Of a stretch of 64,000 nucleotides of DNA, positions 15,501 to 18,500 are shown piece after piece. Position 1 is the first letter of the stretch, and every line of letters begins with the position of its first letter. The stretch lies in NCBI RefSeq assembly GCF_056712565.1, contig NZ_CM160072.1; one strand, 5' to 3'. The position numbers were made by a program.

Positions 15501-18500
15501 CGCTGGGGGTGATTGGCGTGATTTATGAAGCGCGCCCGAACGTGACGGTTGATGTTGCTTCCCTGTGCCTGAAAACCGGTAACGCGGTGATCCTGCGCGG
15601 CGGCAAAGAAACCTGTCGCACTAACGCTGCAACGGTAGCGGTGATTCAGGACGCCCTGAAATCCTGCGGCTTACCGGCGGGTGCCGTGCAGGCAATTGAT
15701 AATCCTGACCGTGCGCTGGTCAGTGAAATGCTGCGTATGGATAAATACATCGACATGCTGATCCCGCGCGGTGGGGCTGGTTTGCATAAACTGTGCCGCG
15801 AGCAGTCGACAATCCCGGTGATCACAGGCGGTATAGGCGTATGCCATATTTACGTTGATGAAAGTGCAGAGATCGCTGAAGCCCTGAAAGTAATTGTCAA
15901 CGCGAAAACTCAGCGACCGAGCACATGTAATACGGTAGAAACGTTGCTGGTAAATAAAAACATCGCAGATAGCTTCCTGCCCGCATTAAGCAAACAAATG
16001 GCGGAAAGCGGCGTGACGTTACACGCTGATGCAGCCGCGCTGGCGCAGTTGCAGGCAGGCCCCGCGAAGGTGGTGGCTGTTAAAGCCGAAGAGTATGACG
16101 ATGAGTTTCTGTCATTAGATTTGAACGTCAAAATCGTTAGCGATCTGGATGACGCCATTGCCCATATTCGTGAACACGGCACGCAACACTCCGATGCGAT
16201 CCTGACCCGCGATATGCGCAACGCCCAGCGTTTTGTTAACGAAGTGGATTCCTCCGCTGTTTACGTTAACGCCTCTACGCGTTTTACCGACGGCGGCCAG
16301 TTTGGTCTGGGGGCGGAAGTTGCGGTAAGCACACAAAAACTCCACGCGCGCGGCCCAATGGGGCTGGAAGCTCTGACCACTTACAAGTGGATCGGCATTG
16401 GTGATTACACCATTCGTGCGTAAATAAAACCGGGTGATGCAAAAGTAGCCATTTGATTCACAAGGCCATTGACGCATCGCCCGGTTAGTTTTAACCTTGT
16501 CCACCGTGATTCACGTTCGTGAACATGTCCTTTCAGGGCCGATATAGCTCAGTTGGTAGAGCAGCGCATTCGTAATGCGAAGGTCGTAGGTTCGACTCCT
16601 ATTATCGGCACCATCAAGAAAATCAATAACTTAGCTTAACTTCTCTAAGAAATTGTATCTTCTGTTATCACTTACAAACGCCTATACGTTGTTATGGGCT
16701 TTGGTAGTTTAACACGTATGGGCGAGTAGTTCCCAGGCTCAACCTCGTAACAAGTTCCTTTGAAGCTGGAAGACGTGCCACCGTCTCTAAACCTTCTACC
16801 AAAACTCTTAGCAAGATGTTCCACACCTGGCGCGGTGTCCAATGATGCTACACGTCGTGAGACGTTGCAGAGGATAAACAGGCTAAATGATGGGAAGAGT
16901 TTTAAGTGCAATAGTGGATTAAAGCCCACCTCTTCAAAACCTAACTTGATCGGGAAAGAATCAAGCTCTAGCACGGTTTCGTCCACCGGAGTACAACGGG
17001 TGCCTGATAAGAGAAGAACTGCTAAGACTTCATAGCTTTTGTGAAAAAGCCCTTTTTAGTGGATACGCCTACGGCGCTTATTTTTTGGTATAACCATCAA
17101 AGGCGCTTTATGGCTCCTATTGTCTTGAAAATGTATCTTTACTTGTATTGTGTTTTATGCGTAGTCTCCCTGTGTAGTATGTAACTTGTTAATTTTCATA
17201 TGAATACAGAGGCAACACGATGAAAAACATTGCAGCTATAAAACGTAATAACCGCAAGATTCACGCTCGTAAGTTCCTGTCTACGCCAGAGGGAAAAGCC
17301 TGGCTAGAGCGAAAGCAACGAGAGAACGAAGAAAGAAAACTCCTTAGTGAGTTGAAATGGCTTAGAGAGGATTTCTGAAAATCTCCAGAACGCAACAAGA
17401 CGCATTCTAACGCTGTTTTCATTGCTTGGTATAGGGATGTATATGTGATGTGTGTTTAATGCGTCTGTGAGCTTGTTTTGTGCCTTATTTTGCATTTTCA
17501 TAATGCAGAAGAGAACACGGAAAACCTTAAAATTAATTATTGGGGTATTTAAGGCTATTTTAAGGGGATTTAAGGGTATTAAACTTGATTTAATTGATTA
17601 AAATATAAACAGATAGCTCTGCATCTTATTGATTTATAAGGTTATTTTTGAATAAAGGTAAATAAAAAATAAATAGCCATAAATAGCTATAAATAGCTAT
17701 AAATACATCTAAATACATATGAATCCCCTCCCTTATGGCTAGATTGCGAGAGGTGCTTAACGCGATTTTTAGCGCCCCCCGATCTGGAAAATCCAGAATC
17801 CCCAAATATCAAGGAGGCATTACGCCTCCTCTTCTTCCTTCTTAATTCGCTGTACCGTTGAAGGAGCAACATTAAAGCTCTCGGCGGTTTTACGCACTGA
17901 CACGCCAGCGGAAAGGGCTTTCTTTATACCTTCCCTATCTACTGCCTTCCCTTTACCACGCTTTGTAGGATTGACGGCTTGCGCTTCTCGTTTACGCTCT
18001 AACATCAGTTCACGTTCACACGTTGCAACTGCCGACAACATCGTAAGCATCATCTTTCCCATCGCGCTTGTAATGTCAGCAATGATTCCTTCTTTGTGAA
18101 ATCGAACAATTACACCTCGATTATTAAGTTGTTCCACTAAGGCAAGAATGTCTAAGGTGTTACGCCCTAAACGATCAAGAGAGTGGACGTGTAAGGTGTC
18201 GCCTTCTCTCAGATAGGATAAACACGCCTGCAATCCTGGACGGTTAGTGTCTTTACCTGACAGCTTATCTTCAAAGACTTTATCAAGCGTTACTCCTGCA
18301 AGCTGGCGATCAGTGTTCTGATCTACAGTGCTCACACGCTTATAACCGATATTGCTCATAAAATCCTCTTAATGTATCGATTTGGCACTACTTCAATGCA
18401 AATGAGTATATCGTATTCATTTGGTCTGTTTCAAGCCTTATAGGTACGGAATATTACACGATTTAGATGTATTCATTTGGTATGCCTAATGGATACACAG

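Follow-up and report, generated by a model that had tools for sequence, protein, structure and literature searches.

Few large RNAs combine many conserved helices, and several that do (RNase P, group I and group II introns, tmRNA, OLE, ROOL and GOLLD) have proved to be catalysts, machines or assemblies of an unusual kind. ROOL and GOLLD frequently neighbour tRNA genes; we know of no function assigned to either, and cryo-electron microscopy structures have reportedly been obtained for both in recent work (bioRxiv 10.1101/2024.12.08.627333). RNAs of a different kind act in satellite P4 and in phages P1 and P7, where the CI and c4 RNAs, rather than a protein repressor, keep lytic or replication genes off. 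These RNAs of ~70-80 nt base-pair with repeated target sequences and are cut from a leader transcript, so that they act both in cis and in trans. Here, we analyse the interval 16614-17219 of a 64,000-nucleotide stretch of DNA from the Escherichia coli proB-proA-thrW locus (contig NZ_CM160072.1 of assembly GCF_056712565.1; hereafter the window, to which all positions refer). The interval is the left end of a tRNA-integrating, satellite-like element inserted at the tRNA gene thrW, adjoins the attachment site attL of that element and very probably harbours the gene of a structured non-coding RNA of ~410 nt.

This RNA represents a new family of a known general kind, the large structured RNAs of mobile elements, with ROOL and GOLLD as its nearest analogues. 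Like these two, it extends over several hundred nucleotides, combines many covariation-supported helices with conserved junction strands and resides on DNA of mobile or prophage type. It differs from them in being smaller, in having been found so far only in Enterobacterales, in being tied to the attL end of one element family and in showing no sequence or structure match to either. The parallel with P4 CI and c4 is that no obvious CI-type repressor protein was recognised in the element studied here, but an RNA of ~410 nt with tertiary-type features, for which we found no conserved complementary target and no Rfam match, and which is not located upstream of replication genes, departs from these antisense RNAs in most other respects. 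Searching Rfam 15 with positions 16400-21000 at E values up to 10 returned only the tRNA and noise at 13-29 bits, and searching it with six diverged relatives and a Klebsiella locus at E values up to 1 returned only tRNA; none of the families considered (ROOL, GOLLD, C4/CI antisense RNA, RNase P, tmRNA, group I and II introns, riboswitches) accounts for the locus. A literature search, in which the proteins were looked for by accession, brought up no account of them, of the RNA or of the element family, and PMC11109978 has none either.

Compensatory changes argue for a structured RNA

Relatives of the interval were mapped using nhmmer and clustered at 93% identity, which gave 34 clusters from Escherichia, Klebsiella, Enterobacter, Raoultella, Pantoea and others, with scores ranging from near-identical to barely detectable. 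The segment 16661-17125 recurs in elements integrated at leuX (strains M8 and NCTC9080), at glyU (M15) and at a tandem thrW site (MS6193).

RNAalifold applied to a plain MAFFT alignment of 14 sequences (A2) predicted three long-range helices and detected compensatory changes in 26 of 60 pairs. When a specified structure including a crossing helix was evaluated on the same alignment, 93.0% of the cells were paired, as opposed to 32-41% in slid controls, and double changes were found in 30 of 67 pairs, as opposed to 5-9 in slid controls; the observed value was reached in 0 of 500 shuffles, a count that is not a probability since the sequences are interrelated. Two further alignments (A4 and A6) are model-based, and because the sequences in them were aligned to the model, they are biased in its favour: the core model R1 on A4 yielded 95.9% paired cells (30-39% when slid), compensatory changes in 34 of 41 pairs and a covariation of 0.476 (versus ~0.06), and the 5'-domain model R2 on A6 yielded 91.0% paired cells (33-43% when slid) with 18 of 26 pairs compensatory. 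Model R1, which comprises 189 positions, is present in exactly one copy in each of 40 sources. Compensation can also be followed by eye, for instance in the replacement of AGACG/CGTCT by AGAGT/ACTCT, or of CTTGAT/ATCAAG by CCGGAT/ATCCGG, CCAGC/GCTGG and CTGCAT/GTGCAG. Insertions of variable length fall at hairpin tips, namely at the tip of helix P2, at a duplicated P12-like hairpin in Raoultella and Pantoea and at the optional hairpin P9 of the window type. Because G-U pairs outnumber A-C pairs 39 to 7, the folded strand is the + strand.

Several observations weigh against this interpretation, in addition to the leaning of A4 and A6 and the relatedness of the sequences. The RNA is predicted from a comparison of DNA sequences, both of its ends are inferred, and few or no pairs vary in helix P11, in P8 within the main group and in most of P2. 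The folding energy of the single sequence is no better than that of shuffled sequences (z = -0.08 for the + strand and -0.68 for the - strand); poor z-scores are common for long RNAs and do not outweigh the covariation. A consensus promoter and terminator scan of 16400-17800 called nothing on the + strand, the -10 element of the window copy (TGTTAT) has no A at its second position and the -35 element is poor. Finally, the RNA may run into the downstream gene as a leader, since its 3' hairpin has a 4-bp stem and a weak U-tract in several relatives. With these points taken into account, we still consider an RNA gene at ~16677-17090 on the + strand very probable. A small RNA had been offered as one option by an earlier note made from the window sequence; covariation upholds this option in kind and not in scale, as the molecule would be a multi-domain RNA of ~410 nt.

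Covariation alone cannot separate RNA from single-stranded DNA, and the element carries a capsid gene, so the hairpins could be imagined to act in single-stranded DNA, as a single-strand replication origin or a packaging signal. We view this as very improbable because RNA is where one typically meets GNRA tetraloops, many G-U pairs, helices that close a domain over a long range and, as is probable here, a pseudoknot, because the O-like initiator with its iterons points to theta-type rather than rolling-circle replication, and because the relatives have a sigma-70 promoter register immediately upstream of the folded region.

The interval holds no conserved open reading frame

The first well-supported gene after attL is orf52 at 17220, and the description of the preceding ~600 bp in the earlier note, as a region without convincing open reading frames (ORFs) and with only short overlapping ones on both strands, was accurate, coordinates included. 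The ORFs that can be drawn mechanically encode 104 aa (- strand, 16672-16986), 91 aa (+ strand, TTG start, 16760-17035) and 47 aa, and none is conserved. Each of the six frames contains 1-13 stops in 14 diverged homologues, indels of 1-2 nt are common between homologues, and indel lengths often depart from multiples of three. The interval is free of annotated features in all 510 E. coli records carrying the region, where the Prokaryotic Genome Annotation Pipeline (PGAP) makes no call.

The 104-aa and 91-aa ORFs, together with a hydrophobic peptide that would start at 17110, are the candidates for one or more small proteins missed by annotation, and both the 127 codons over which the - strand frame stays open in the window and the conservation of ATGG at 17110 could be cited in their favour. 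Such proteins are nevertheless exceedingly improbable: all frames are interrupted in relatives, the - strand frame by 5-6 stops even in M8, which is 95% identical, and the indels and the silence of PGAP tell in the same direction. The peptide from 17110 was rejected as a conserved product, as it stops after five codons in M8 and M15 (MAPIV*) and, by inspection, is entirely different in other types.

An integrase-specific att arm occupies the first ~45-60 bp

The interval has three parts, an att arm, a structured RNA and a DNA-level promoter/operator block, and this partition, with an RNA gene at its centre, is quite probably the best explanation of the interval as a whole. The earlier note had primarily proposed that it may hold integrase arm-type and recombination directionality factor (RDF) sites, which fits the first ~45-60 bp (16615-~16660) and does not fit the ~465 bp that follow (16661-17125). 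Variation with integrase and target was found in the former segment only: directly behind the core, ~45-60 bp diverge among the elements at thrW, leuX and glyU, and homology to the leuX and glyU elements begins only at ~16661 (query positions ~48-512, corresponding to ~16661-17125 of the window). The thrW-type and glyU-type integrases are 31% identical, and because 16661-17125 is conserved in elements that encode such divergent integrases and use other tRNAs, it cannot consist of integrase-specific sites.

The perfect consensus for integration host factor (IHF), WATCAANNNNTTR, has five matches in the 64 kb of the window, both strands counted, and the one located in the att arm is found at the same position in 11 of 25 family representatives, the others mostly having near-matches by eye. 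The comparison with the attR-proximal region (29254-29339) that the earlier note had recommended returned one 10-mer pair, TTCTCTAAGA at 16641 and TTCTATAAGA at 29270; across the reconstructed attP, eight pairs with at most one mismatch were detected versus 3.2 +/- 2.8 in shuffles, a weak excess. The segment would be the P' arm of attP, bearing a predicted IHF site and possibly a single arm-type site for the integrase. It resembles the P' arm of a lambda-type attP, which comprises a core, the IHF H' site and arm-type sites, in its well-placed IHF consensus, in the ~45-60 bp that vary with integrase type and in the position of the integrase gene on the other side of the core; it differs in covering less than a tenth of the interval and in having arm-type repeats barely above chance.

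An extension of this role to all ~600 bp, as a recombination arm made of DNA-level sites for integrase, RDF and host factors, would be in keeping with the contact between the interval and the core, with the IHF consensus whose position is kept across the family and with the 10-mer common to the attR-side arm. It is highly improbable given the conservation of 16661-17125, but not of 16615-16660, across divergent integrases and different tRNA targets, the weakness of the repeat excess and the occurrence of compensatory changes in helices up to 214 nt apart together with the bias of G-U over A-C, which are not patterns of DNA-binding sites. For 16661-17125, we take the covariation and the integrase comparison to refute it.

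The predicted RNA is the best-conserved part of a widespread element

A sensitive blastn search detected the interval in 570 of 5426 complete E. coli genomes, roughly one in ten. Exact-pattern scans identified 39 loci in IMG/VR, 102 in metagenomes and 10 in a collection with one genome per species (Pantoea, Kluyvera, Winslowiella, Citrobacter, Escherichia sp., Raoultella, Kosakonia and Enterobacter), and further Klebsiella loci were obtained from contigs encoding homologues of the orf52 protein. By blastn, none of 50,697 phage records matched, and the only matches among plasmids were two E. coli records, at least one of which is chromosome-sized (4.8 Mb). Where a whole tRNA is retained (60 loci), this tRNA-Thr, tRNA-Leu or tRNA-Gly is co-oriented with the RNA and ends 53-98 nt upstream of it; at many other loci, in tandem arrays, only a partial att copy precedes it. 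The RNA and orf52 are still detectable where the other proteins of the element are not, and the RNA is better conserved than the structural proteins. Judged by these comparisons, no other part of this mobile element, which is widespread in E. coli and its relatives, is as well conserved as the predicted RNA.

Two metagenome-assembled genomes titled 'Bacillota bacterium' (L045 and L050) contain a nearly identical copy of the E. coli type, flanked by thrW or leuX, most likely as a binning contaminant.

Architecture of the predicted RNA

The RNA is predicted to fold into ~14 helices, including three long-range helices that close the core, one strongly covarying helix and hairpins capped by GNRA tetraloops (positions and pair counts in Table 1). 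A 5' domain (P1-P3) would precede a core closed by P4, P5 and P8 and containing P6, P7, P10 and the P11/PK pair, and would be followed by a tail made of P12 and the 3' hairpin. In the 5' domain, the GGC of the P1 loop and the GCC of the P3 loop can form three invariant G-C pairs flanked by a covarying one (UA in 16 sequences, CG in 6 and UG in 5), so that the two loops probably make a loop-loop contact (kissing helix). The tip of P2 varies in length; insertions lengthen it by as much as ~55 nt in Pantoea, Winslowiella and Klebsiella. RNAalifold had instead paired AGGC (~16735) with the 3' end, a helix that we replaced by the local P2, which fits the positions of the insertions and gains compensatory pairs in diverged sequences.

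The inner domain holds the near-invariant strand AATGNTGGGAAGA...CTAAC. Within this domain, the PK helix crosses P11, and the two would make up a probable H-type pseudoknot. As P11 never varies, the case for the pseudoknot comes from the strongly covarying PK helix, with P11 as its presumed partner; by inspection, P11 would need a shifted register in the sequences of the diverged group. Near-invariant unpaired strands are distributed along the molecule: AGUAGUU, UCUAAAC, AUAAAC, AAUGNUGGGAAGA, CUAAC, the GGGAAA loop, GCUCU and GAUAAGAG.

Natural deletion variants indicate that the domains of the RNA are separable. The copy in NCTC9080 (L015, corresponding to L005 5985-6250) keeps the 5' domain and P4-P7 without the P8-P10-PK domain and without orf52, and is followed by a restriction-modification system; two other variants (L099 and L061) are devoid of P6 and P7.

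Transcription and the downstream gene

The RNA would be transcribed rightward from its own sigma-70-type promoter, which appears weak in this copy. TTCTCT at 16641 sits in the -35 register relative to the -10-like element of the window. In most relatives, judged by eye, a -35 element TTG(C/T)(C/A)T is separated by 16 nt from T(G/A)(T/A)(T/A)(A/G)(T/G) plus CAC, in a fixed register upstream of P1, and one relative has a perfect TGTATAAT in this register. Read-through from the tRNA promoter may add to transcription where an element lies directly behind an intact tRNA gene. It may contribute here too, as the scan called no + strand terminator between thrW and 17812, but it cannot be the only source since many copies lie behind a partial att copy. 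In its position directly downstream of a co-oriented tRNA gene with no called terminator between them, which means that it could be made partly from the tRNA promoter, the RNA resembles functional tRNA 3' trailers (3' external transcribed spacer RNAs). It differs from these in being kept where only a tRNA fragment lies upstream and in having, in most relatives, a promoter-like site of its own. The known trailer species are short, unstructured sponges.

At the other end, the 3' hairpin consists of a 4-bp stem (CGCC/GGCG) followed by UUAUUUUUU, where an intrinsic terminator would have a G+C-rich stem of 5 bp or more and a U-run; it was not called by the scan and its U-run is degraded in several relatives, so it is possibly a weak terminator or a hairpin that protects the 3' end. 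The conserved block that follows (17094-17125) behaves differently from the RNA, as its sequence is conserved and its potential hairpins are not, and homology with relatives carrying a different downstream gene ends just after it. We interpret the block as the probable promoter/operator of the next gene, orf52.

orf52 is conserved across many genera, and its 57 homologues are all from Enterobacteriaceae and all named hypothetical. AlphaFold2 (AF2) models the protein as a two-helix hairpin with a predicted local distance difference test (pLDDT) score of 88.6; the protein belongs to no Pfam family, and the model has no Foldseek match in the PDB. A ribbon-helix-helix fold was rejected, and a resemblance to the 'RNR motif' of the RNase P protein or to Rop is unsupported. 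orf52 accompanies the RNA in almost all loci, and restriction-modification and HNH genes follow it in Klebsiella and NCTC9080. A strict partnership between the RNA and orf52 is unlikely, since M8 and M15 carry an unrelated basic ORF of 99 aa behind an RNA that is close to that of the window in M8 and diverged in M15. In a Klebsiella subfamily at glyU (L058-L060; 9480-10000), an extra ~520 nt with a called 77-aa ORF (9733-9966) separates the RNA from the orf52 homologue.

These data bear on the possibility that the RNA has no gene of its own and forms a long cis-acting 5' leader (an attenuator, riboswitch or antitermination element) of the rightward transcript with orf52 and whatever genes follow, where it would gate read-through from the RNA or tRNA promoter. 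The RNA is always upstream of and co-oriented with a small ORF, in many variants its 3' hairpin is too weak to terminate transcription reliably, the + strand has no called terminator up to 17812, and the conserved junction nucleotides and the probable pseudoknot are reminiscent of ligand- or protein-binding aptamers. We nonetheless find this rather unlikely. The downstream gene varies (mostly orf52, the unrelated 99-aa ORF in M8 and M15, other ORFs in diverged clusters), and the block with its -10-like hexamer is interposed between the RNA and the ORF, with homology ending just beyond it. By inspection, no antiterminator pairing is conserved, as an alternative to P12 exists in two types and is absent from others, and 410 nt is far above the size of known riboswitch aptamers. 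Neither a constant class of downstream gene nor mutually exclusive pairings, as would characterise a riboswitch or cis-acting leader, was thus found.

Possible roles of the RNA

A specific fold in three dimensions, with some binding partner, is what the conserved junction strands suggest, as do the loop-loop contact and the probable pseudoknot. The fixed place of the RNA at the att end, beside a promoter block and a cargo hotspot, and its better conservation than that of the structural proteins argue for a role in the control or propagation of the element. We tentatively suggest that it is a regulatory or protein-binding RNA that acts in trans and is possibly also part of a leader. The folded RNA would then bind a protein or ligand and regulate the life cycle of the element, that is, maintenance versus induction and expression of the adjacent rightward genes.

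A more far-reaching proposal, to which we assign little likelihood, is that the RNA is a machine and not a mere regulator: a ribozyme, or an RNA forming assemblies with helper-phage proteins or sensing them, for instance in packaging, in capsid hijacking or as a switch that responds to the helper. Just as improbably, it would be the functional heart of an undescribed satellite family bearing a capsid gene and a new class of large ornate RNA. The presence of capsid, tape-measure-like and Dit-like genes without portal or terminase, a capsid protein without close phage relative, and an RNA more strongly conserved than any of these proteins, are compatible with such a machine, which, if real, would be an RNA-based mechanism not known in conflicts between phages and satellites.

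Other schemes were examined and set aside. A type III toxin-antitoxin system of the ToxIN kind would comprise a tandem-repeat RNA, a terminator and an endoribonuclease of ~170-200 aa; a repeat search in 16500-17300 returned only short two-copy matches of 9-19 nt, with no tandem repeats, and the downstream protein is a basic two-helix hairpin of 52 aa. A guide-RNA scheme, in which the P1 sequence would track the tRNA target, fails as the same P1 type occurs at thrW and leuX. Inspection revealed no T-box-like codon matching, anti-Shine-Dalgarno pairing or antiterminator conserved across types.

An uncatalogued RNA of ~410 nt in about one-tenth of complete E. coli genomes, in Klebsiella and in other clinically important Enterobacteriaceae is unexpected in so heavily studied an organism, and is easy to test since strains that carry it can be cultured. 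As the conserved end of a family of mobile elements with restriction-modification and HNH cargo alongside, it offers a practical signature for finding them and is possibly a key to how they are controlled or mobilised. The locus also shows that an unannotated gap beside tRNA-borne islands can hold a gene.

The host element and its surroundings

The element is the 12.7-kb insert (16595-29359) bounded by two copies of a 20-bp direct repeat, ACTCCTATTATCGGCACCAT, and has rebuilt the 3' end of thrW. It is a discrete unit, since strain GPEC548 carries the same element between proA-thrW and a different right-hand neighbour, and related elements occur in Klebsiella, Enterobacter, Raoultella and Pantoea, among others. 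No portal, terminase, tail tube or repressor was recognisable among its proteins, and the phage proteins nearest to its capsid protein, those of Pseudomonas myophages, share only ~24% identity with it. To our knowledge, it fits none of the P4-like, PICI, cfPICI, PLE and PICMI satellite families.

Table 1. Coordinates of the features at the thrW locus, listed from left to right in the window; counts refer to base pairs with compensatory changes
Feature	Position	Strand	Remarks
tRNA-Thr (anticodon CGT), thrW	16538-16613	+	ARAGORN; Rfam tRNA, 71.8 bits; integration target
attL core, 20-bp direct repeat ACTCCTATTATCGGCACCAT	16595-16614		Read directly from the sequence
Integrase-type-specific att arm (P' arm of attP)	16615-~16660	strandless	Not conserved between thrW, leuX and glyU elements
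IHF-like site AATCAATAACTTA	16621-16633	+	Perfect match to WATCAANNNNTTR; predicted from the consensus
Candidate arm-type repeat TTCTCTAAGA	16641-16650	+	Partner TTCTATAAGA at 29270-29279
-10-like TGTTAT, then CAC	16663-16671	+	Implied transcription start ~16675-16678
Structured non-coding RNA, ~410 nt (predicted)	16677-17090	+	Pair counts with controls, strand test; both ends inferred
P1 hairpin	16679-16688 with 16715-16724	+	7/10 pairs changed on both sides; loop with invariant GGC (16697-16699)
P2	16736-16742 with 16760-16767	+	One bulged A; 6/7 on A6
P3 hairpin, AGACG/CGTCT	16771-16775 with 16782-16786	+	4/5; loop GCC (16778-16780)
Core domain	16806-17027	+	Closed by P4 and P5; contains P6 and P7
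P4	16806-16813 with 17020-17027	+	8/8
P5	16818-16821 with 17016-17019	+	5/5
P6	16823-16838	+	4/5
P7	16846-16869	+	GUGA tetraloop; inner helix 5/5
Inner domain	16874-17013	+	Closed by P8; near-invariant flanks ATAAAC and GATAAGAG
P8	16879-16882 (CAGG) with 17003-17006 (CCTG)	+	Invariant in main group; CGAG/CUCG in 13 diverged sequences
P9, optional hairpin, GAAGAG/CTCTTC + GTGG/CCAC	16894-16935	+	Only window, M8 and M15 types; absent in most relatives
P10 hairpin	16945-16965	+	Invariant GGGAAA loop; 5/7; 99.6% of cells paired
P11	16974-16977 with 16985-16988	+	Never varies, no covariation
PK helix	16981-16984 with 16998-17001	+	Crosses P11; 4/4; 100% paired
P12 hairpin, CUUUU-GUGA-AAAAG	17036-17049	+	GNRA tetraloop, GCGA or GUGA in relatives; 5/5
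3' hairpin, CGCC-UAC-GGCG then CUUAUUUUUU	17066-17088	+	Hairpin conserved
Conserved DNA-level block CCATCAAAGGCGCTTTATGGCTCCTATTGTCT, 32 bp	17094-17125	strandless	-10-like TATTGT at 17118-17123 (TATTGT/TATTAT)
orf52, very basic protein of 52 aa	17220-17378	+	PGAP coding sequence; invariant NN-(R/K)-(K/R)-IHARKFL
Serine invertase	17820-18359	-	
O-like replication initiator	21176-21829		
Major capsid protein	23929-24957		Phage_cap_E (lambda-E-type)
Tape-measure-like protein	25263-27092		
Dit-like protein	27126-27839		
Tyrosine integrase	27919-29253	-	DUF6538 + Phage_integrase; start 86-141 bp from attR core
attR core, second copy of ACTCCTATTATCGGCACCAT	29340-29359		

Further features of the element and its neighbour were observed in passing. 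A 16-nt inverted repeat (17699-17714 and 18461-18476, 94% complementary) brackets the serine invertase gene, which suggests an invertible DNA segment, and Klebsiella relatives have a short tyrosine recombinase at the equivalent position. Just outside the inverted repeat on the invertase side, 17640-17730 is a short tandem array of repeated TAAATAGCY followed by repeated TAAATACAT. The ~2.4 kb from 18360 to 20740 contain no convincing genes. Between 19.0 and 19.55 kb, they are dense in iteron-like arrays (seven copies of approximately CCCCCACAGAATTCTGTTA, four of TAGGTCATAGTGAACTA and three of ACCTAGGAAATGAGTTCC) and also have AT-rich tracts; this region precedes the O-like initiator gene and probably serves as the origin of replication.

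A second island (29360-35066) abuts attR, so that thrW hosts a tandem array of islands. It comprises an N-terminal fragment of a P4-type integrase (29513-29851), a 174-aa ORF on the - strand (30286-30810) that we take to be a MarR-like regulator, and a 1376-aa autotransporter, also on the - strand (30936-35066), which is presumably Vat-like, as recognised from its sequence.

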